Assembly (NCBI GenBank): GCA_041660025.1
Contig: JBAZXD010000001.1
Span: 106,059-156,498 of the forward strand
DNA from: Minisyncoccota bacterium
GTDB lineage: Bacteria > Patescibacteriota > Minisyncoccia > Phycocordibacterales > Phycocordibacteraceae
DNA length: 50,440 bases
Reading direction: 5' to 3'
Shown piece by piece: positions 6,038-50,440 of the stretch (position 1 is its first letter; every line of letters begins with the position of its first letter). Below the pieces are notes generated by a model. The model was given only the letters and a program-made list of their open reading frames with translations. It searched no databases and was not told the DNA's origin. The position numbers and the translations under genes were made by a program.

Positions 6038-6108
6038 AGCGGGGTAGAGGAGAGGTACCTCGGGAGGCTCATAACCTCCAGACGCCGGTTCGATTCCGGC
6101 CCCCGCAA
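6038..6108 (+). tRNA. tRNA-Met(CAT), probable initiator
   Basis: Cloverleaf: GCGGGG/CCCCGC acceptor with unpaired A1-A72, anticodon stem GGAGG/CCTCC with loop CTCATAA, T arm GCCGG-TTCGATT-CCGGC. Promoter TTGCCT-17-TATAGT at 6001-6029. Confidence 0.93.
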
Positions 6109-32731: not shown

Positions 32732-32772
32732 ACAGGCAGTTTCCCTCCGGGGGAACTGCCTGTTAACTTTTT
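32732..32772 (+). terminator. Palindrome family 2, copy 1 (terminator-like)
   Basis: ACAGGCAGTTTCCC-TCCG-GGGGAACTGCCTGT-TAACTTTTT. Confidence 0.75.
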
Positions 32773-34303: not shown

Positions 34304-35125
34304 ATGGGACAGGTCTTTACATGGGATTCCATCCAAGCCGGAAGGGTCCCGAAATTAGAAAGCTTCCATCGTGTTGCGGCGGACTTGCGCGAGACACTCT
34401 CGAACGAGTCATCTGTAGTGAGCGCCCTCCTCTTCGGTTCCGTCGTGCGCGGCGACTTCAACATCCGAAGCGATGTCGACTGCATCGTTCTATATGAGAC
34501 AGGAGGGCAGAATTCGGCTGTGGGGGCCATGCACCACGTCGACCGGATGGCGCACGCACTACACGTGCCTATCAACTACACGCCGTGCGATACGGCGCTG
34601 GCGAGAACTCGCCTCCATGTCGTCGGAACATCGTTCGTTCGGCACTTACAATGTGCGATAGACGCTGGCGGGCTCATCAAGGGCAACCTTGCCGATTTGC
34701 TCGCACCGACGGTACCCGTGGCGCAGGAGCTCGAGTCGTACATCTCGAGGAAAATGTACAGCCTGCAGGCGGCGCTGGCGCAGATGGCCTCTTTCGATGA
34801 AAAGGAGCTCGCAAGGTTCTTCAGAAAGGCGCTTGAAGCTCCGATGCATATAGCACGTAAGATGCTCATCTACGAAGGCACTCTGGAAGGCGATTCCAAG
34901 CAGGATGTCCGAACGCGTTATCGGGAGACGATGCCGACGTATCTCGGAGAGCAGTTCGATTATCTGCTCAGCGTGGATTCCCACTACAGCCTGGAGCTCG
35001 GGCTCCAACTGGAAATCCAGGATCAGGAGCAGTACTCCGACGCGCTCGTCTCGCTTCAATCGGAACTACCGAAAGTGCTCGAGTTCCTCCGCGCGAACAT
35101 TCTCCGGCTCAATGATGCTCGCTAA
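34304..35125 (+). CDS. Pol-beta superfamily nucleotidyltransferase with helical C-terminal domain
   Basis: FGSVVRGDFNIRSDVD motif; AAGGAG SD. Confidence 0.85.
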   Translation: MGQVFTWDSIQAGRVPKLESFHRVAADLRETLSNESSVVSALLFGSVVRGDFNIRSDVDCIVLYETGGQNSAVGAMHHVDRMAHALHVPINYTPCDTALARTRLHVVGTSFVRHLQCAIDAGGLIKGNLADLLAPTVPVAQELESYISRKMYSLQAALAQMASFDEKELARFFRKALEAPMHIARKMLIYEGTLEGDSKQDVRTRYRETMPTYLGEQFDYLLSVDSHYSLELGLQLEIQDQEQYSDALVSLQSELPKVLEFLRANILRLNDAR

Positions 35126-35144
35126 CCGGCGGCATCAAACAATC

Positions 35145-35212
35145 ACAGGCGGTTTCCCCGAAGGGGAAACCGCCTGTTAACTTTTGTGAGCAAGGGCTAC
35201 CCTTGCTCACAA
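35145..35212. terminator. Palindrome family 2, copy 2, plus a second hairpin, between convergent genes
   Basis: ACAGGCGGTTTCCCC-GAA-GGGGAAACCGCCTGT-TAACT, then TTGTGAGCAAGGG-CTA-CCCTTGCTCACAA. Confidence 0.8.
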
Positions 35213-35236
35213 TGGAAAGAAATAGGAAGTCGGTAC

Positions 35237-35644
35237 TTAGAATTTGATGACCGGGTACGCGGCTATAAGTTTTTCCGCATCGGCGGCTCTGCCCTCTATG
35301 CGAAGCACTTCAGCGAGTATCTGCTGGTCGCCTCGCAATAGCTCGGAGGAGATATCACGGTCGCTTCGAAGAACGGAATACAGAATGAGCGATTCAGGCG
35401 ATAGCGTTATCTCCGCCTGTCTCGCATACGTTGTGGCATTTGTGGCATAGACCTCATTGACCTTCACACTCGGGTCTTCTGCGGCATTCTTGATTCGCTC
35501 AAATTCCTCTCTCTTCAGGTGTCCGCCCGGCAGGGCGGAGTATGCGGCAAAATCATTAATATAGACTACCTCCGCGCTTTCCTGCGCTTCAGGTTTCCTA
35601 GGTTCATTCGACTCTGGCTGAATCCTTTCGGCGCCTTCTTTCAT
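35237..35644 (-). CDS. Hypothetical protein
   Basis: 135-aa ORF with AAGGAG-like internal composition and plausible start; no motif recognised. Confidence 0.6.
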   Translation of the reverse strand: MKEGAERIQPESNEPRKPEAQESAEVVYINDFAAYSALPGGHLKREEFERIKNAAEDPSVKVNEVYATNATTYARQAEITLSPESLILYSVLRSDRDISSELLRGDQQILAEVLRIEGRAADAEKLIAAYPVIKF

Positions 35645-35683
35645 ATGATTTTTTGCTATGTAATTAGCGTACGTCTAGTATAT

Positions 35684-35724
35684 CACCGGCGGTTTCCCCC
35701 TCGGGGAAACCGCCCTTTAACTTT
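35684..35724 (+). repeat. Palindrome family 2, copy 3
   Basis: CACCGGCGGTTTCCCC-CTC-GGGGAAACCGCC-CTTTAACTTT. Confidence 0.75.
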
Positions 35725-35758
35725 GAATGGCTCGGACGCCACGTTGATTGTGTACAAA

Positions 35759-35781
35759 TATTTTGCAAAAGACTGCAATAG
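35759..35781 (+). promoter_or_regulatory. 23-bp operator-like direct repeat, also present at 36056-36078
   Basis: TATTTTGCAAAAGACTGCAATAG, identical in both places; contains TTGCA-N6-TGCAA. Confidence 0.7.
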
Positions 35782-35799
35782 CGGTGGTAGAATGGGGGT

Positions 35800-36078
35800 A
35801 TGACGGAAAAGGTTTCGTACCGCCGGATGGAACGGATCGTGAAAGGGTTCGCGAATCATCGCCGCTTGGAGATACTCGACCTGCTCAAGCGGGAACCGGA
35901 GCTCTCGGTGGACGATATTTCTGAACGGCTCGGTATCGGATACGAGAACGCCTCCGACCATGTGCGTAAATTGGCGATCGCCGGTCTCGTGTTGAAGCGC
36001 AACGACGGCAACGCGGTGCGCCACAAGCTCACTCCCCGCGCTGAATCTGTTCTAGTATTTTGCAAAAGACTGCAATAG
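35800..36078 (+). CDS. ArsR/SmtB-like winged-helix transcriptional regulator
   Basis: KGFANHRRLEILDLL, SVDDI, ASDHVRKLAIAGLV. Confidence 0.88.
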   Translation: MTEKVSYRRMERIVKGFANHRRLEILDLLKREPELSVDDISERLGIGYENASDHVRKLAIAGLVLKRNDGNAVRHKLTPRAESVLVFCKRLQ

Positions 36079-36128
36079 ATAGAGCGGGGTGTGCGGCGAT
36101 TGATAAAATTAAAATTGCATGCGGGAGA

Positions 36129-36156
36129 AAAACGCCGCGGTAATCCGCGGCGTTTT
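36129..36156. terminator. Hairpin after the arsR-like gene
   Basis: AAAACGCCGCGG-TAAT-CCGCGGCGTTTT. Confidence 0.7.
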
Positions 36157-36173
36157 ATTGATATACTTTGTTC

Positions 36174-36569
36174 ATGGACTCCTACACTTCATATCAGGCG
36201 CTCATCAAGCCGAGCTGGTCGCCGCCCGCGTGGGTCTTCGGTCCCGTGTGGACAGTGCTGTACGCCATCATCGCCGTTACGTTCGGCACAGTGTTCTATA
36301 AGGCGTTCACCAGGGAAGTCCCCTGGGCGGTTGCGCTCCCGTTTGCACTCAACCTCGTCTTTAATTTTTCTTTCACGTATTTCCAGTTCGGCCTGCAGAA
36401 TAATGCGCTTGCCTCAATCGACATCCTGCTCGTCCTCGGCACCCTCGTCTGGGCGCTCATTGTCGTCTGGCCCCACGCCCGCTGGGTCGCCCTCGCCAAC
36501 ATCCCCTACCTCCTCTGGGTCTCCTTCGCGACCGTCCTGCAACTTACGGTTACGTATTTGAATCGATAG
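36174..36569 (+). CDS. tspO: TspO/MBR tryptophan-rich sensory protein
   Basis: LIKPSWSPPAWVFGPVWTVLY, PYLLWVSFA. Confidence 0.95.
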   Translation: MDSYTSYQALIKPSWSPPAWVFGPVWTVLYAIIAVTFGTVFYKAFTREVPWAVALPFALNLVFNFSFTYFQFGLQNNALASIDILLVLGTLVWALIVVWPHARWVALANIPYLLWVSFATVLQLTVTYLNR

Positions 36570-36596
36570 GAATGGGTGCTTTAATTGGTGGAAGTC

Positions 36597-37757
36597 ATGA
36601 CAACTCTAAATCTACAGCCAAATGGAGAAGTAATTCGGTGGGCAAGAGAAACAAGTCGCAAATCTATCGCCGAGATTGCGGCGGATTTGGATGCAACACC
36701 AAGCGAAATTCGTTCGTGGGAAGCCAATTCTGCTCCGGTTCGTCTCACTCAACTTAAGAAACTGGGATCTTTGTACCAGAGACCCATCGCTTTTTTCTTC
36801 GCGCCTGTTCCTCCAACAGAGGAGTTAATTACTCCAGCTTTTAGAACATTTGATTCAGTCAAATTAGATTCCCTTTCAGAAAAGACCCTTATTGCACTTC
36901 GGAAGTCAAAAGAAAATAGAGACCTGTATAAGTTTCTTCTAGAGGAACTTGAAGAGAAATACAGCTTCAATTTTCCCATCACCTCTATTAACGATGATGC
37001 CGATCAATTCGCAGATAAAGTCAGAAAGTATCTCGGTATTTCAGACAACATTCATGAGAGATTCAAAGATAAATATGTTGCCTTAAAATTTTGGATAGCT
37101 CTTGTTGAACAACACGGGCTATTAGTCTTCCAATATTCTCTTCCAGAAAGGGGGTTTTGTTTAAGTGGCAATGAGGACCTTCCTCCCACCATCGTCATGA
37201 ATTCGGGAGAATACCCTGCCGGCAGAATATTCACCATATTCCACGAGCTTTGCCATCTTTTGCTGAAAGAAAAATCAGAATCTATATCTCACACAAGATT
37301 GGAAGAGTACTGCAATCACTTTGCTGGGGCGTTTCTTGTATCCAAAAGAAAGTTGATGGAAAGCAAAAACAGGGAGAAATTCCTGCTTGAAATGTCCGAT
37401 TTCTGGTTAGGAAGGTTGGCCGGTGAGTTCAAAGTTAGTCATGAAGTCGTTTTACGAAGGCTATTGATTCTTAAGGATATCACCCAATCATTTTACAATC
37501 AGAAAATAGCAGAACTGAAGAAAATTCAACAGAGAAGAAAGGAAGAATCTGAAACAAGCGAGAATTCGGGGTTCATAGCTCCTGCTCGCAAAGCCCTAAT
37601 GAACGTGGGCGTCACTATGGCCTCGAAGCTCTTTCAAGCACGAGATGCCGGTGTTATTAGTACAGCAACGCTCGTTAGAAGTTTTGACACCACCTCGCAT
37701 TCTTTGAAAAACGTTGGTACCGAATTAGCGTCCGCAAAGAACCTAAAGCTCGAATGA
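36597..37757 (+). CDS. XRE-HTH plus ImmA/IrrE zinc metallopeptidase fusion
   Basis: N-terminal HTH (IRWARE...IAEIA...IRSWEA), FTIFHELCH, EEYCNHFAGAFL; AT-rich. Confidence 0.92.
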   Translation: MTTLNLQPNGEVIRWARETSRKSIAEIAADLDATPSEIRSWEANSAPVRLTQLKKLGSLYQRPIAFFFAPVPPTEELITPAFRTFDSVKLDSLSEKTLIALRKSKENRDLYKFLLEELEEKYSFNFPITSINDDADQFADKVRKYLGISDNIHERFKDKYVALKFWIALVEQHGLLVFQYSLPERGFCLSGNEDLPPTIVMNSGEYPAGRIFTIFHELCHLLLKEKSESISHTRLEEYCNHFAGAFLVSKRKLMESKNREKFLLEMSDFWLGRLAGEFKVSHEVVLRRLLILKDITQSFYNQKIAELKKIQQRRKEESETSENSGFIAPARKALMNVGVTMASKLFQARDAGVISTATLVRSFDTTSHSLKNVGTELASAKNLKLE

Positions 37758-38293
37758 TGGCCAACATGACTTCGACGCGAATATACATTATTGATACAAG
37801 TGCTTTTGTAGTGCTTGATACGTTATTCCCCTTCGCACAATGGCAACCAATATGGGATTTTCTTGGGGTAAAGGTGACAGAGGGTGTTCTGAAAACCATC
37901 GATGAGGTAGAGGAAGAGTTAAAAAGGAAATTTTATGATCTACCGATTACGGATTGGGTAAAAATGCGAAGGTCAGAGATAAACTACCCGTATATTCCAG
38001 AGCATTTTCAATATCTGAGACAGGAGGTTTACCCACGATGTAATGGGCTCATAAATCCAAACAGTACGTCGACTTTATACGCTGACCCGATGCTGTTAGC
38101 GATAGCTGGGCATGATAACCACACGTTGGTCACCGACGAAGTGCTTAAAGAAATTCATGCAAACACAAATCCTCTGAAAATTAAGCTTCCTAACCACTGC
38201 AGCACTCTTGGTGTCAATTGTATCTGGGGAAGGTATGCATGGACCCAGTTACTAAATGAGCTTGGGTTACAAATTACAGGATTTAAAACTTAA
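37754..38293 (+). CDS. DUF4411-like PIN-domain protein
   Basis: YIIDTS, EVEEEL, ADPMLLAIA, LVTDE, KIKLPNHC; overlaps the IrrE stop. Confidence 0.82.
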   Translation: MMANMTSTRIYIIDTSAFVVLDTLFPFAQWQPIWDFLGVKVTEGVLKTIDEVEEELKRKFYDLPITDWVKMRRSEINYPYIPEHFQYLRQEVYPRCNGLINPNSTSTLYADPMLLAIAGHDNHTLVTDEVLKEIHANTNPLKIKLPNHCSTLGVNCIWGRYAWTQLLNELGLQITGFKT

Positions 38294-38352
38294 ATACCAC
38301 TGGACATAGCACGGATTTAAATAAGGAGTAGACTTAAGCGGTATAGATAGGT

Positions 38353-38700
38353 ATGAAGAAAATAGACGAATTTACAAAGAGAATAGTTGCCTTCAGGAAC
38401 GCCCGGGACTGGAAGCAATTTCATAATCCCAAGGATCTCTCACTCTCTCTCGTTCTCGAGGCCACCGAGGTCATGGAGCATTTCCAGTGGAAGAATAAAG
38501 AAGAAATAGAGAAGTACGTTATTGAAGCAAAAGGAGAAATAGGGGAGGAGCTCGCAGATGTCTTGTATTGGGTTCTTTTGATGAGCCACGACCTAAAAAT
38601 AGATGTACTCAATGCGCTCGATAAAAAGATGAAGAAAAACGAAAAGAAGTATCCCATCAAAAAAGCAAAAGGGAAACATACGAAGTACAACAAACTTTAA
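38353..38700 (+). CDS. MazG-like nucleotide pyrophosphohydrolase
   Basis: FRNARDWKQFHNPKDL, EATEVMEHFQW, EELADV, KYP. Confidence 0.93.
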   Translation: MKKIDEFTKRIVAFRNARDWKQFHNPKDLSLSLVLEATEVMEHFQWKNKEEIEKYVIEAKGEIGEELADVLYWVLLMSHDLKIDVLNALDKKMKKNEKKYPIKKAKGKHTKYNKL

Positions 38701-38703
38701 TTT

Positions 38704-41013
38704 ATGATTGTTTATCAATCTACGAAACTAGGGTTTTTGAAAGATGCATCAAATGGAATCGAAGACATAGTTAGAGAACAGGTAAAAGAAAGGCTCAATA
38801 TCGATATTAAAGTCGGGAGCAGTGAATATAACTCCTGGAAAAACTCCTTGGGAGATGCGATGTACAAGGTAATGCAAACGGATAAGATCCCAGATGATTC
38901 TGGCGTTGCAATAGAATACTCAATACCTCGCACGAAAAACCGTATTGATTTTGTCATTACAGGTGAGGATGATAATGGTAAAGAGAAAGTTATTATCATT
39001 GAGCTCAAACAATGGACCGATATTCAAAAGACGGATAAAGATGCAATCGTCACCACCCGCTTTAAAAGCGGCTTAAGCGAAGAACTCCATCCCTCGTATC
39101 AGGCATGGTCGTACTCCACTCTTCTTTATGGGTTCAACGCTACAGTATACGAGGAGAAAATTGGTCTAGAACCCTGTGCATATTTGCATAATCATGTGGA
39201 TGAAGACGTCATATTGAGTCCTTTTTATGCTGATTATCTTCAAAAAGCACCTGCTTTTTGCAAGGGGGACAAAGAAAAACTTCAGGACTTCATTGCGAGA
39301 TTTGTTAAACACGGAGAAAAGAAAAACACGCTTTATCGGATCGATCATGGCGAGATTCGTCCATCAAAGAATCTCGCGGATAGTCTGGCTTCAATGCTCA
39401 AAGGTAATGACGAGTTTGTCATGATAGATGAACAAAAGATTGTGTATGAGACAGCGCTTTCTCTCACGAAGAAATCTTCAAAAACCAATAAAAACGTATT
39501 GATTGTCGAAGGCGGTCCGGGTACTGGCAAGTCGGTAGTAGCGATAAATCTTCTGGTAGCAATTACTAAGCTGGGGCTCAATACGCAATATGTAACCAAA
39601 AATGCAGCGCCACGTGGCGTGTTTGAGGCAAAGCTTGTGGGGTCATTTAAGAAGTCGCAAATATCGAATTTCTTCACTGGATCGGGGTCATTTGTTGGAG
39701 AGGAAGAAAATATCTTCGATGCTCTTATTGTCGACGAAGCACATCGGCTTAATGAAAAATCTGGAATGTTCAAAAATCTTGGTGAGAACCAAATCAAGGA
39801 GATTATTGATTCTGCAAAGTGCTCGATATTTTTCATAGATGAAGATCAAAAAGTGACATGGCACGATATCGGGAGGAAAGAGGAAATTGAGAAGTGGGCA
39901 AATAAAATTGGTGCAAAGGTTCATGGTCTCAAACTTGAATCGCAGTTTCGCTGCAATGGTTCTGACGGATATCTATCATGGCTTGATAATGCCCTTGGTA
40001 TAGAAGAAACAGCAAATACAACCCTGGAGGGGATAAATTATGATTTTAAGATTGTTGAATCGCCGAATGAATTGCGGGACATAATTTTCGAGAAAAATAA
40101 AATTGCCAATAAAGCACGATTAGTTGCTGGGTATTGTTGGAATTGGGTAAGCAAAAAAGATAAGAATTTAAATGACATCGTAATTCCAGAATATGACTTT
40201 GGGATGAAGTGGAATCTTGCAAGCGATGGAAACGTTTGGATAATATCACCGAAGTCTGTAAACGAAGTAGGTTGCATTCATACGTGCCAGGGTCTTGAAG
40301 TTGATTATGTTGGGGTTATTGTTGGAAATGATTTTGTTGTCCGAAACGGCGAAATAGTGATTAATCCTGATAAACGCGCGAAGACCGATGCATCACTAAA
40401 AGGATACAAAAAGGAATTTAAAGAAAACCCAAAGGCTGCAGCCGAGAAAGCTGATGCAATCATCAAAAATACCTACAGGACCCTCATGACCCGAGGAATG
40501 AAAGGATGTTATGTCTATTTTGTAGACAAGGAAACGGAAAATTATTTTAAGAATAGAATCGGAAAAGAGATAGACTATCAAAAATATTTCGCACCGGTAT
40601 TGTCGCCGATTACCCGGGACATGATTCGTGTTCCGCTCGTCGGATCGGCCCCATGTGGTAACCCATTAGTAGGAGAACAGAATATCGAAGAGTATATTTT
40701 AGTCGAGAAAGCAAAAATCAAGCCCGGGTTTAAATATTTCATCCTCAGGGCCGAAGGAGACTCAATGAATCTCGCAGGTATAAATGATGGGAACCTTGTC
40801 TTATGCCGCCTGCAAGAAAAAGCTGACACAGGTGATCGAGTCGTGGCTCTTTTAGGAGGTGAAAACGTCACTATCAAAGAGTATGGCCCACGAGAAGACG
40901 GTGTCCGTCTGTTACTCCCTAAGAGTACAAATAAAGAACACCTGCCGATTACTCCCGACGAGGGTGACAGTGTGCAAGGTGTTGTTCAGGAAGTTATTAA
41001 ACCGACAGAATAA
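38704..41013 (+). CDS. DUF2075-type nuclease/SF1-like helicase fused to C-terminal LexA/UmuD S24 peptidase domain
   Basis: RIDF...IELKQW (PD-D/ExK-like), GGPGTGKS, VDEAHRL, HTCQGLE, TYRTLMTRG; then VPLVGSAPCG, EGDSM, TIK. Confidence 0.9.
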   Translation: MIVYQSTKLGFLKDASNGIEDIVREQVKERLNIDIKVGSSEYNSWKNSLGDAMYKVMQTDKIPDDSGVAIEYSIPRTKNRIDFVITGEDDNGKEKVIIIELKQWTDIQKTDKDAIVTTRFKSGLSEELHPSYQAWSYSTLLYGFNATVYEEKIGLEPCAYLHNHVDEDVILSPFYADYLQKAPAFCKGDKEKLQDFIARFVKHGEKKNTLYRIDHGEIRPSKNLADSLASMLKGNDEFVMIDEQKIVYETALSLTKKSSKTNKNVLIVEGGPGTGKSVVAINLLVAITKLGLNTQYVTKNAAPRGVFEAKLVGSFKKSQISNFFTGSGSFVGEEENIFDALIVDEAHRLNEKSGMFKNLGENQIKEIIDSAKCSIFFIDEDQKVTWHDIGRKEEIEKWANKIGAKVHGLKLESQFRCNGSDGYLSWLDNALGIEETANTTLEGINYDFKIVESPNELRDIIFEKNKIANKARLVAGYCWNWVSKKDKNLNDIVIPEYDFGMKWNLASDGNVWIISPKSVNEVGCIHTCQGLEVDYVGVIVGNDFVVRNGEIVINPDKRAKTDASLKGYKKEFKENPKAAAEKADAIIKNTYRTLMTRGMKGCYVYFVDKETENYFKNRIGKEIDYQKYFAPVLSPITRDMIRVPLVGSAPCGNPLVGEQNIEEYILVEKAKIKPGFKYFILRAEGDSMNLAGINDGNLVLCRLQEKADTGDRVVALLGGENVTIKEYGPREDGVRLLLPKSTNKEHLPITPDEGDSVQGVVQEVIKPTE

Positions 41014-41051
41014 TAAACCCCGCGAGATCGAATTTCGTGGAGTAAGAAACT

Positions 41052-41189
41052 CTAGTTTGTTGGTTTCGGTTGGTTCGTAATTTTGGCTGGTGCGCTTTTA
41101 GGTAAGTTGGTCAACTTAACGGGAAGGCTTTTCGGCTGGTTCGTAATTTTGGCAGGCGGATTCTTTTTTTGATTGGTGAGTTTTGTCAT
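41052..41189 (-). CDS. Unannotated 45-aa Lys/Pro-rich peptide made of four 11-aa repeats
   Basis: MTKLTNQKKNP-PAKITNQPKSL-PVKLTNLPKSA-PAKITNQPKPTN; the nucleotide differences between the PAKITNQPK segments of repeats 2 and 4 are synonymous. Confidence 0.65.
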   Translation of the reverse strand: MTKLTNQKKNPPAKITNQPKSLPVKLTNLPKSAPAKITNQPKPTN

Positions 41190-41343
41190 AGATTATGCGT
41201 TGGTTAATATTGTTCGGTTTGACTAGGCCGATACCATACATTTTACTCCTGTCTATGAAATACGCCCTGTGGAGATCATGTGGAGAGCGAAATCCTAAAT
41301 CCAGTAGCTTTTGGGAGGAAATTCGATGAGGTACAATACCCTC

Positions 41344-42066
41344 ATGAGGATTATCTTTTTTGATACGGAGACGACGGGGAATGGCGACAAGGACAGACTC
41401 TGCCAGCTCGCGGTGAAGGAGCGGTTCGTGGACGAACCGCTGGTGAACGCGACGTACAAGCCGCCCGTGCCGATATCCATCGAGTCGATGGCGATTCATC
41501 ACATCACCGAGCGGATGGTCGCCGGCCGGCCGGCGTTTCAGGACGCGCCGGAGTATGGGAGTGTGAAGGACCTCTTCGAAAACGAGGAGACAGTCGCGGT
41601 CGCGCATAATGCGGCCTTTGACGTGGCGATGTTCGCACGCGAGGGCATTGTGCCGCGCCGGACCATCTGTACCTACAAGCTCGCCTACGCGCTCGACCCG
41701 GACGACGCCGTGCCGAACTATCGGCTCCAATATCTGCGCTACTTGCTCGATCTCGATATCGAAGCCGAGGCGCACGACGCCTGGGGCGATGTGCTCGTGC
41801 TCGAAGCGCTCTTCGAACGGCTCCTCGAGAAGATGAAGGAGCGGCACGGGACCGAGGAGGCCGCGCTCGAGGCGATGCTCGCCATCTCAGCGCGCCCGAT
41901 GCTCTTTACCACGCTCCGCTTCGGCAAATATAACGGCAAGAAGATAGAAGAGGTCGTCCGCCTCGATAAGAGCTATCTGGAATGGCTCCTGAAGGAGAAA
42001 GAGAAGGATCCGACGGGAGAGGCAGACTGGATATATACACTCAAGCATTATCTAGGCGCGGTTTGA
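41344..42066 (+). CDS. DEDDh 3'-5' exonuclease (ExoX-like)
   Basis: FDTETTG, AHNAAFD, AHDAWGD, C-terminal FGKYNG motif. Confidence 0.92.
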   Translation: MRIIFFDTETTGNGDKDRLCQLAVKERFVDEPLVNATYKPPVPISIESMAIHHITERMVAGRPAFQDAPEYGSVKDLFENEETVAVAHNAAFDVAMFAREGIVPRRTICTYKLAYALDPDDAVPNYRLQYLRYLLDLDIEAEAHDAWGDVLVLEALFERLLEKMKERHGTEEAALEAMLAISARPMLFTTLRFGKYNGKKIEEVVRLDKSYLEWLLKEKEKDPTGEADWIYTLKHYLGAV

Positions 42067-42079
42067 TACAATACTCGGT

Positions 42080-42403
42080 ATGAACTATTTCATTTTGATT
42101 ATTATCGGAGTGGCGGGAGTCGCACTCGGAGTGTATATGGCGAAGAGAGGCGTGCGGGCGCCGCAGGGTGGAAACACGCAAAGCGCGGTGAACGAGGGGC
42201 GCGTTGTCGCGAAGCAGATGGCGCTGGAGAGGGTGTTTTCTGAAATACAAAAGAAGGGGAGTATCACGAACGACGAAGTGCAGGCCCTGCTTAGCGTCTC
42301 CGACGCGACCGCCGAGCGGTACCTGCAGGAGCTCGAGGCCGCGGGCGGCATCTCGCAGGTAGGCGCGGGCGGGAAGGGGGTGTCGTATAGAATCAAGGAA
42401 TGA
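42080..42403 (+). CDS. Membrane-anchored small protein with C-terminal DeoR-like winged HTH
   Basis: N-terminal TM; ITNDEVQALLSVSDATAERYLQELE. Confidence 0.75.
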   Translation: MNYFILIIIGVAGVALGVYMAKRGVRAPQGGNTQSAVNEGRVVAKQMALERVFSEIQKKGSITNDEVQALLSVSDATAERYLQELEAAGGISQVGAGGKGVSYRIKE

Positions 42404-42404
42404 G

Positions 42405-42449
42405 GCCGCGTTAAACGGCTCAGACCCCGTCTGAGCCGTTTAACGCGGC
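42405..42449. repeat. REP-like palindrome family 1, copy 3 (opposite orientation)
   Basis: 21-bp arms GCCGCGTTAAACGGCTCAGAC-CCC-GTCTGAGCCGTTTAACGCGGC. Confidence 0.9.
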
Positions 42450-48671: not shown

Positions 48672-49451
48672 ATGGAACACAAACCGATTTCAGAACTTAT
48701 GGATCTCTCGGGGAAGGTCGCTATCGTTACCGGCGGAGGTATGGGCATCGGCTTCGCGATAGCGAGCCGACTCGCTGAGGCGGGCGCGAAGGTGCTGGTC
48801 GCGGACAGGGACGCGGCCGCCGCAGCGGCGGCCGCGGAGAAGATCGGCGGGCTCGCGTGCACTACAGATGTATCAGAGGAGGCACAGGTCTCTGCGATGG
48901 TCGCGAAGGCGGTCGCGGAGCTGGGGGGCGTGGATATCCTCGTCAACAACGCCGGCATCTATCCGACGAAGCTGGTGCTCGACTCGACGAAGGAAGATTT
49001 CGAGAAGATCATCCACATCAACCTTATGGGGGTGTTCTTCGCGAGCAAAGCGGCGGCCGCTCAGATGATCGCGCAGGGTAGGGGCGGCAAGATAATCAAC
49101 ATCACCTCTATCGACGCGCTCCACCCCTCCTCCGCCGGTCTCGCATTCTACGACGCGAGCAAGCACGGGCTCTGGGGCTTCACCAAGAACCTCGCGCTCG
49201 AGCTCGCGCCGCACAACATCAGCGTGAACGCGATTGCTCCCGGTGGCGTGGCGACACCCGGTACCGGTATGGGCGAATCGACGAACCCAACGATCGCGAA
49301 GATCATGGAATCCTTTGTCGCGAAGATTCCCCTGCATCGTATGGCCGACGCCGACGAGATCGGCAAGGTCGCGCTCTTCCTCGCCTCCGACCTCTCCTCG
49401 TATATGACCGGCTCACAGGTCGTGGTCGACGGCGGCACCCTGCTTGCGTAG
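48672..49451 (+). CDS. Short-chain dehydrogenase/reductase
   Basis: TGGGMGIG, NNAG, YDASK, VNAIAPG. Confidence 0.95.
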   Translation: MEHKPISELMDLSGKVAIVTGGGMGIGFAIASRLAEAGAKVLVADRDAAAAAAAAEKIGGLACTTDVSEEAQVSAMVAKAVAELGGVDILVNNAGIYPTKLVLDSTKEDFEKIIHINLMGVFFASKAAAAQMIAQGRGGKIINITSIDALHPSSAGLAFYDASKHGLWGFTKNLALELAPHNISVNAIAPGGVATPGTGMGESTNPTIAKIMESFVAKIPLHRMADADEIGKVALFLASDLSSYMTGSQVVVDGGTLLA

Positions 49452-49470
49452 AGGCCTTTTACCGGGGCTA

Positions 49471-49499
49471 TTGACAAAATAGCCAACCTATGCTAGACT
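49471..49499 (+). promoter_or_regulatory. Near-consensus sigma70 promoter with extended -10
   Basis: TTGACA-17-TAGACT with TG at -15/-14; the -35 lies inside GGCTATT/AATAGCC inverted repeat. Confidence 0.8.
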
Positions 49500-49502
49500 T
49501 GT

Positions 49503-49725
49503 CTTGCTGGTCTTTTATGGAGGATTACACCGGTGCAGTAGGTCTAACCGACTTCACCCAAACCACGCTCCCTTGTGGAAACCTTTAAATAGGCGACGCG
49601 TATAGGGAGCGACGAAAAAGTCCTCGTCCGCCGGACGAGACGGGCAGCTCGCGATAAGCGCACTTGATTCCCGAAATGACTCCACATTGGAGGCAGGTGA
49701 GAGGGTCAAACAGCACGCCAGCAGG
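49503..49725 (+). ncRNA. Structured ncRNA, raiA-motif-like
   Basis: Closed by CTTGCTGG/CCAGCAGG; contains AAGTC-hairpin(CTCGTCC/GGACGAG)-A, GCAGGTGAG..GGTCAAA and CGCTCCC/GGGAGCG; bounded by a promoter and a terminator. Confidence 0.7.
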
Positions 49726-49732
49726 CCTAGAA

Positions 49733-49770
49733 GCCCGTTCCCTCAATCGACACGAGGGAGCGGGTTTTCA
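49733..49770 (+). terminator. Intrinsic terminator
   Basis: GCCCGTTCCCTC-N9-GAGGGAGCGGGT-TTT. Confidence 0.8.
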
Positions 49771-49847
49771 CTTTCCAGATAGTGGTTTTGCATTAAACAC
49801 ATTATTGTTATATAGTAATCAGACGCCCACGGGCCTTTTTTATTTTT

Positions 49848-50440
49848 ATGGAAATTCGCAATATTGCTATCATCGCGCACGTCGACCACGGGAAGACCGC
49901 GCTCACTGACGCTATCCTGAAGCAGACCGGCGCGGCAAAGGAGGGCACCACGATGGACACGAACGCAATCGAACAGGAGCGCGGCATCACCATTTACGCC
50001 AAGAATGCGGCGGTCGAGTACAAGGGCACGAAGATAAACATCGTGGACACGCCCGGCCACGCAGACTTCGGCTCTGAAGTGGAGCGCGTCCTGCGTTCTA
50101 TCGACTCAGTCTTGCTTATCGTGGATGCGCAGGAGGGTCCGATGCCGCAGACGCGGTTCGTGCTGAAGAAGTCCTTGGAGCTCGGCCTGAAGCCCATCGT
50201 CGTTTTGAATAAAATAGACAAGCCGGCGGCCGACCCGGCACGTTCGCACGACCAGGTACTGGAACTTTTTATGGAACTCGGCGCTACCGACGAGCAGTGC
50301 GATTTCCCGGTGGTATACGCTATCGGCCGCGACGGACGCGCCGCACTCACGCCCGACGAGCTCTTGGTGGGCGACGAGAAAGACCTCTCGCCACTCCTCG
50401 ACCTCATCCTCGAGAAGGTCCCCGCCGCAAACGCCACCGC
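49848..50440 (+). CDS. typA: Translational GTPase TypA/BipA (5' part, runs off the window; absent from the ORF track)
   Basis: [58 protein letters not shown]; own promoter TTGCAT-17-TATAGT at 49788-49816. Confidence 0.95.

Follow-up and report, generated by a model that had tools for sequence, protein, structure and literature searches.

A 340-nt insertion upstream of typA in a Patescibacteria bacterium and a candidate orphan structured RNA gene within it

The spacer between a short-chain dehydrogenase/reductase (SDR) gene and typA in a Patescibacteria genome contains a 340-nt insertion that is absent from all related genomes compared. It carries a sigma-70-type promoter signal and an intrinsic terminator, and it matches no known RNA or protein family. 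We read it, tentatively and at somewhat less than even odds, as an orphan, lineage-specific and independently transcribed structured RNA gene that was gained by insertion and has no assignable family. The locus lies at the end of a window (the whole stretch of DNA that was analysed, 50,440 nucleotides) that is compact; the 396-nt spacer from the SDR gene (48672 to 49451) to the typA ATG (49848) is one of only three gaps in it longer than 250 nt.

Insertion between the SDR gene and typA

The features of the locus, in window coordinates, are as follows.

48672-49451, + strand: SDR gene, short-chain dehydrogenase/reductase (Pfam adh_short_C2, 7e-63)
49459-49461, no strand: left TTA flank, a junction relative to the empty sites of L007, L011, L013, L039, and L041
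49462-49801, + strand: insertion, 340 nt
49466-49484, no strand: perfect palindrome GGCTATT-N5-AATAGCC, read from the sequence and enclosing the -35 box
49471-49499, + strand: sigma-70-type promoter (-35 TTGACA, 17-nt spacer, TG extension, -10 TAGACT)
49517-49588, + strand: 23-codon open reading frame (ORF) MEDYTGAVGLTDFTQTTLPCGNL, with a start context, TTTTATGGA, identical to that of typA
49730-49775, + strand: intrinsic terminator, a 15-bp hairpin (49730-44/49754-68) with a 9-nt loop, then U-tract UUUUCACUUUCC
49787-49816, + strand: typA promoter region (9/12 match)
49802-49804, no strand: right TTA flank, a junction relative to the empty sites of relatives
49824-49847, + strand: short GC hairpin and U-tract abutting the typA ATG, ancestral and outside the insertion
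49848-50440, + strand: typA/BipA translational GTPase gene, N-terminal 197 codons, running off the window end

The closest SDR homologs (84 to 89% identity) lie on Patescibacteria contigs with conserved synteny, and the order (pirin)-NTP-transferase-SDR-typA is kept in five related lineages. At these loci (labelled L), the SDR-typA spacer measures 52 to 53 nt (L007 to L014, L039, and L041) or, through an unrelated 71-nt hairpin insertion, 124 nt (L015). The relatives' spacer, TAA-AAG-YYT-C-TTTATTG-TATATTG…ATG, corresponds to window positions 49449 to 49461 joined to 49802 to 49847, with the insert between them. All nine relatives whose typA upstream regions were compared lack the element; the database-nearest typA relatives have other upstream genes and short spacers. 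In a tree of typA N termini, the window is sister to L007 (98% amino acid identity) and nested within empty-site taxa, and trees built from SDR and NTP-transferase likewise place it with genomes whose site is empty. A single gain is thus far more parsimonious than several precise losses, and as the flanking genes share 81 to 87% nucleotide identity with L007, the gain is younger than a split of about that depth. The initial annotation had described an element retained in a reduced genome, which is contradicted by the empty orthologous sites in five lineages and by the nesting in the typA tree.

The insert was checked for traits of MITEs or transposons. The TTA/TTA flanks may be a 3-bp target duplication or microhomology; terminal inverted repeats are absent, and searches of the 50-kb window and the relatives' loci turned up no further copy.

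Two other insertions occur in this spacer region in relatives. In L015 (GCA_028866135.1, positions ~920 to 991), the 71-nt insertion forms a 12-bp hairpin (CCCCGTAGTAAA…TTTACTACGGGG) directly before typA and is flanked by a direct repeat, TGTATGGA, that includes the typA start codon; its sequence suggests either a miniature mobile element or a duplication. In L002 (GCA_041660245.1, 1478 to 2903), a genuine retron stands immediately upstream of typA, with a 342-aa reverse transcriptase (RT; PADLOC RT_II-A, 7e-23). The retron RNA region (~280 to 300 nt, before the RT) is closed by a perfect 11-nt inverted repeat, GCCAAGGAGGC/GCCTCCTTGGC (1529-39/1819-29), folds with a z score of -4.4, and has no Rfam match. 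The retron and the 71-nt element indicate that, in this group, accessory elements repeatedly settle in the spacer ahead of typA.

Full-length typA relatives contain GTP_EFTU and BipA_C domains. In three loci, typA is called as at least two adjacent ORFs (L003:3001-4805, L004:3001-4787, and L053:29-1812, split into 172 + 428 aa, 194 aa + fragments, and 276 + 318 aa), and all 120 proteins among the matches listed for a typA N-terminus query are truncated (172 to 343 aa); frameshifts, assembly errors, or contig breaks could be responsible.

Transcription signals, predicted fold, and homolog searches

The near-consensus promoter of the initial annotation was located at 49471 to 49499 as TTGACA-17-TGcTAGACT, with the TG extension at 49491-92. 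In a scan of both strands of the window, it is the best sigma-70 match in 50 kb; only two sites in the whole window match at 10 of 12 positions, and a perfect -35 box with a TG extension occurs only here. A similar but weaker sigma-70-like site lies immediately 5' of the tRNA at 6038, which makes it plausible that the host genome uses promoters of this type. Transcription would probably start at about 49505 to 49507. The palindrome around the -35 box is unique within the window and, judged from its letters, operator-like. The terminator that had been called by eye was likewise found, as a 15-bp hairpin and U-tract at 49730 to 49775, with hairpin pair probabilities of 0.62 to 1.0 in partition-function folding. 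On the minus strand, the CUCGUCC/GGACGAG hairpin (49622 to 49640) is followed by ACTTTTTCGT and was scored in the scan as an opposite-strand intrinsic terminator; no minus-strand gene terminates there.

Downstream of the insert terminator, typA keeps an ancestral TG-containing -10 block, TTATTGTTATATAGT (49802-16), and the -10-like block TTATTGT(T)ATAT is conserved in all relatives. The ancestral typA -35 box, TTGCGT, overlaps the SDR stop codon and was displaced by the insert, the right end of which offers a substitute -35-like TTTGCA/TTGCAT (49787-93). typA has no Shine-Dalgarno sequence. The GC hairpin before its ATG has counterparts, each with a U-rich tract and at the typA ATG, in L007, L015, L039, L041, and L053 with differing stems (GGCC/GGCC, CGGC/GCCG, CCCGCC/GGCGGG); it may serve to terminate SDR transcription or to help initiate typA translation.

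Between promoter and terminator, the following structure is predicted.

49503-49727, + strand: structured RNA core (base-pair probabilities and MEA structure)
49503-11/49717-25, + strand: P1 terminal stem CUUGCUGGU/GCCAGCAGG, uninterrupted 9 bp (P 0.86 to 0.99)
49512-27 x 49700-16, + strand: large internal loop of the predicted fold
49528-31/49696-99, + strand: inner closure CACC/GGUG, 4 bp (P 0.65)
49532-58, 49567-610, 49611-22, 49623-39, 49641-73, and 49680-92, + strand: six hairpins (most with P >0.75)

The terminal stem and three internal stems reported in the initial annotation are all present in the partition-function fold; pair probabilities are 0.97 to 1.0 for the GCUCCCU/AGGGAGC helix, 0.95 to 0.99 for CUCGUCC/GGACGAG, and 0.59 to 0.90 for CUCCA/UGGAG. 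A long-range pairing of GACTTCAC (49550-57) with GTGAGAGGGTC (GTGA-GAG-GGTC) had also been proposed and did not hold up, with no such helix above P 0.3. A local hairpin (49532-58) forms instead, in which GACUUCACC is placed with P 0.75 to 0.92; the loop of this first hairpin is 3 nt. No pseudoknot or tertiary-motif candidates were found among the unpaired segments of the predicted fold, where the best complementarity is 5 bp including 2 to 3 G-U pairs. We take this modelled fold to be the probable functional form.

A built-in shuffle test gave a z score of -4.6 with the terminator included. A separate shuffle test of the core alone gave -3.1 on the + strand and -1.0 on the - strand; two flanking coding controls scored +0.2 and +0.5 in this second test. 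The strand contrast was weaker in another core run (-2.4 on the + strand versus -1.7 on the - strand). Across 224 background windows of the same genome (mean shuffle z, -0.44; SD, 1.48), 15 folded as low as or lower than the target's -2.4 (7% tail), and a regression on dinucleotide composition over 4,018 windows ranked the target 558th (z = -0.9). The predicted structure is coherent, stronger on the + strand, and statistically only moderately unusual; the case for an RNA gene therefore comes from the combined layout and not from folding energy.

The background windows at the extreme hold long terminator hairpins with perfect pairing. A GC-rich palindrome, ACAGGCGGTTTCCCC-loop-GGGGAAACCGCCTGT followed by TAACTTTT, is present in three near-identical copies (window 32732-32763, 35145-35177, and 35688-35714) that form a REP-like or terminator hairpin family and are the source of the window's most extreme fold z scores. 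A 21-bp perfect hairpin (GGCCGCGTTAAACGGCTCAGAC…GTCTGAGCCGTTTAACGCGGC, 42399 to 42449; fold z = -5.8) lies close to the start of a 485-aa cupin-domain ORF.

Homologs were sought in genome, metagenome, virus, and protein collections. An exact 20-mer had 0 matches in GTDB genomes, and a two-block pattern had 11 chance matches there, all in coding or ribosome-binding contexts and with no further similarity. A pattern scan of JGI metagenomes gave 2 chance matches only (one on the opposite strand in a promoter-like stretch upstream of a pheS-like gene and one within an inverted repeat), six patterns gave chance or zero matches in IMG/VR, and a blastn search with the insert as query had no match in phage or plasmid collections. 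Translated frames, compared with 5.8 and 1.8 billion predicted proteins with the aim of finding spurious ORFs over homologous RNAs, returned nothing meaningful, and Pfam and PHROGs searches of all stop-free frames returned nothing. A single-sequence covariance model of the core, run over ~190 kb of the relatives' loci, found only itself (290 bits). The pattern scans require exact matches and miss orthologs below ~95% identity in the probed blocks (e.g., at ~85%), so a lack of matches in these scans says little about true absence, for which the empty orthologous sites give strong evidence. Separately, L006, a chance metagenome match, carries the 20-mer GGTGAGAGGGTCAAACAGC(A) twice, inverted and ~46 nt apart (1611-1629 and 1676-1696), a layout suggestive of an unrelated element's terminal repeat or hairpin.

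RNA gene or relic

The reading we favour starts from the gain of 340 bp of DNA by this Patescibacteria lineage, inserted after the SDR stop codon and ahead of the typA -10 box. A strong sigma-70-type promoter set in an operator-like palindrome would drive an RNA of ~220 to 265 nt. Its ends would pair in a 9-bp stem around six hairpins and a large internal loop, and transcription would halt at a constitutive intrinsic terminator. The product would be a stable, trans-acting structured noncoding RNA, and typA would be expressed from its own retained -10 box, shielded from the new unit by the terminator. Trans action is our expectation for such a product, as is transcription of the insert. This reading draws on the empty sites (L007 to L014, L015, L039, and L041) and the nested typA position; on the best promoter in 50 kb, the terminator, the robust helices, and the stronger + strand signal; and on the rarity of gaps >250 nt in a compact window. 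Its noncoding nature is argued by the lack of any Pfam or PHROGs match in any frame and of any match among 1.8 to 5.8 billion proteins. Against an RNA gene stand the lack of a homolog, a fold that is not exceptional (15/224; z = -0.9), and the lack of a pseudoknot or tertiary motif.

Orphan bacterial small RNAs offer one likeness, with their own promoter and intrinsic terminator, similar size, an intergenic site, and no homologs beyond a narrow lineage; typical base-pairing small RNAs usually expose a single-stranded seed, whereas the insert RNA is more extensively paired in the predicted fold. Provided that it is expressed and has a function, the insert RNA would count among the rare cases of a newly acquired, highly structured noncoding RNA in an ultra-small symbiotic bacterium with little spare DNA. 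The gain is clean, close relatives having empty sites, and offers a natural presence/absence comparison.

A promoter and a terminator can also ride on a decaying foreign fragment. The main rival, which we consider rather unlikely though a serious contender, is that the insert is a nonfunctional relic: a foreign or mobile 340-bp fragment that landed at a hotspot in front of typA, such as a promoter and terminator left over from a deleted cassette, or a small mobile element in decay. It would be tolerated since typA keeps its promoter, and its apparent structure would be ordinary for its GC content. Consistent with a relic, the fold lies within the 7% tail of background windows and is unremarkable by regression, no homologs were found in any scan and so no covariation, and the TTA flanking repeat fits a mobile insertion mechanism; the same spacer also takes other insertions (the L002 retron and the L015 71-nt hairpin element). 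The layout is nevertheless gene-like, with a perfect -35 box, 17-nt spacing, a TG-extended -10 box, a clean terminator ~230 nt on, and an end-to-end stem. No frame holds a protein remnant, terminal inverted repeats and a second copy in the window are missing, and noncoding DNA is scarce in a compact genome, all of which argue against a relic.

Other readings of the insert

The peptide, cis-regulator, element-associated RNA, and raiA readings discussed below are, even taken jointly, unlikely to hold the explanation. We also give little credence to a horizontally mobile noncoding RNA cassette (promoter, RNA, and terminator) that would be the first member of a new Patescibacteria structured-RNA class, captured at the retron-capturing hotspot upstream of typA.

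That the insert is a small-protein or leader-peptide gene, with the 23-residue peptide as product and the remainder as 3' untranslated region and terminator, seems improbable. The ORF begins 11 to 12 nt past the probable transcription start in the same TTTTATGGA context as typA, and its lack of a Shine-Dalgarno sequence is no counterargument, since typA also has none. A 9-nt repeat within 521 nt is, however, near chance expectation (~0.5), the peptide has no family match (Pfam and PHROGs) and no obvious peptide features, downstream of the stop codon lie ~180 nt of heavily base-paired RNA, and masking the ORF leaves terminator formation unchanged.

A leader that acts in cis, as a riboswitch or attenuator, on read-through into typA would account for a same-strand position upstream of that gene, and AGGGAGCG occurs twice (49604-11 and 49755-62), formally permitting alternative pairing of the 1:2/3:4 type. 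As an 8-mer, this repeat is at chance level in the insert. The terminator keeps a mean pair probability of 0.94 whichever segment is masked (5' region, short ORF, or AGGGAGCG partner), and the only candidate antiterminator, when forced, costs +8 kcal/mol. There is no riboswitch family match, and typA in all relatives manages without the element, with its own conserved -10 block kept 3' of the terminator in the window. A leader is very improbable. The initial annotation had held that the RNA is not simply a typA 5' untranslated region, and the strong promoter of the insert, the constitutive terminator, and the conserved -10 block of typA bear this out. From the stable terminator, the lack of an antiterminator, and the retained -10 block, the insert unit looks autonomous and insulated from typA. 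No special complementarity of the insert RNA to the typA start region was found, and RNAduplex target prediction against the translation starts in the window was uninformative.

Leader-peptide transcription attenuators are known, e.g., upstream of tet(M), which encodes a related translational GTPase. The insert resembles them in having a short 5' ORF and then a terminator before a translational GTPase gene; it differs in having no predicted antiterminator and in its absence from orthologous typA loci, and typA keeps its own promoter.

It is likewise very improbable that the RNA is an orphan of a mobile or defence element, such as a retron msr-msd-type RNA that has lost its RT or another element-guide RNA. 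As in retron a1/a2, the two ends form a closing stem, a terminal inverted repeat closes a multihairpin RNA of ~200 to 300 nt upstream of typA, and a genuine retron occupies that position in L002. The a1/a2-like terminal repeat is a 9-bp stem in the insert and is not a retron-specific feature. Neither next to the insert nor among the annotated genes between ~29.6 kb and the window end is there an RT, transposase, Cas, nuclease, or other RNA-partner gene, and no sequence or covariance-model similarity to the L002 retron RNA was found. Unlike a retron, the insert has no long msd-type hairpin, and a terminator, followed by typA, stands where a retron would carry its RT gene; Rfam gave no match to msr, HEARO, or similar families.

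The initial annotation had identified the RNA as a divergent homolog of the raiA motif, a reading that is effectively refuted. In size, closing stem, and independent transcription the two are similar, and the short strings put forward there as raiA-like (AAGUC, GAGA, GCAGGYGAG, and GGUCAAA) are present in the insert. The raiA motif is part of Rfam as RF03072 (PMC11706538), and the family was thus covered by cmscan. With Rfam 15 at gathering thresholds, the whole window yielded six tRNAs only, and cmscan of 49400 to 49900 at E ≤10 gave noise only (Guanidine-III, 16 bits; a plant snoRNA, 19 bits), which places any raiA score for this interval below roughly 16 to 19 bits, the level of the weakest listed matches. 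The families named for comparison in the initial annotation (raiA, RNase P, tmRNA, 6S, and SRP) had zero matches at gathering thresholds or at E ≤10.

Published raiA RNAs have a long P1 split into P1a/P1b/P1c by GU and GGU bulges that are >97% conserved (PMC12968392); the insert P1 is a plain 9-bp helix with no such bulges. Further hallmarks are a U-GAA-A (GAA(A) tetraloop) fold at the P1c/P3 junction, a kinked A-rich P3 loop, PK1 (6 to 7 bp, P3b loop with PK linker), PK2, and a conserved UUAGACGUAA linker between PK1 and P6 (PMC12968392 and PMC11751092). UGAAA is absent from 49500 to 49730, the best matches to the UUAGACGUAA linker have 4/10 mismatches (chance level), and no PK1-type complementarity of at least 6 bp exists between unpaired segments of the predicted fold. 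In helix order, the inner closing helix precedes the first hairpin in the insert, versus P3 before P4 in raiA. raiA RNAs occur in Bacillota/Actinomycetota, where comFC lies upstream and raiA/PBP genes are close by; the host here is a Patescibacteria bacterium, outside these phyla, and no comFC, raiA, or PBP gene neighbours the insert, the flanking genes being SDR and typA, in agreement with the earlier statement that no raiA gene is adjacent.

The raiA motif RNA, or ModT (RF03072), thus shares with the insert RNA a length of ~200 nt, paired ends closing a multihelix body, an independent promoter and terminator, and the lack of an obvious cis-regulated gene. It differs in its bulged three-part P1, GAA(A) fold, kinked A-rich P3 loop, PK1/PK2, and UUAGACGUAA linker, all missing from the insert RNA, and it is a stable ancient gene with comFC, raiA, or PBP neighbours, in contrast to a recent, lineage-specific gain in Patescibacteria. 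This negative is the more robust result, and the locus does not extend raiA-motif RNAs to Patescibacteria; a promoter, a terminator, and stems spotted by eye are insufficient for claiming a conserved structured-RNA class.

Two housekeeping RNAs were also considered. RNase P RNA, prompted by GAAAAAGUCC and ACAGC strings, was rejected for want of a P4 partner and of a model match, and 6S RNA, prompted by the large internal loop beside the closing stem, was rejected on the short closing stem, the multihairpin apical domain, and the lineage-specific gain. A housekeeping RNA (RNase P, tmRNA, 6S, or SRP) would not be expected to be missing from the orthologous site of relatives.

Elsewhere in the window, a defence-like cluster (34304 to 42066) encodes a nucleotidyltransferase, an M78/IrrE peptidase with DUF4411, a MazG-like protein, a 769-aa Schlafen-type helicase fused to an S24 peptidase domain, and an RNase T/ExoX-like exonuclease.
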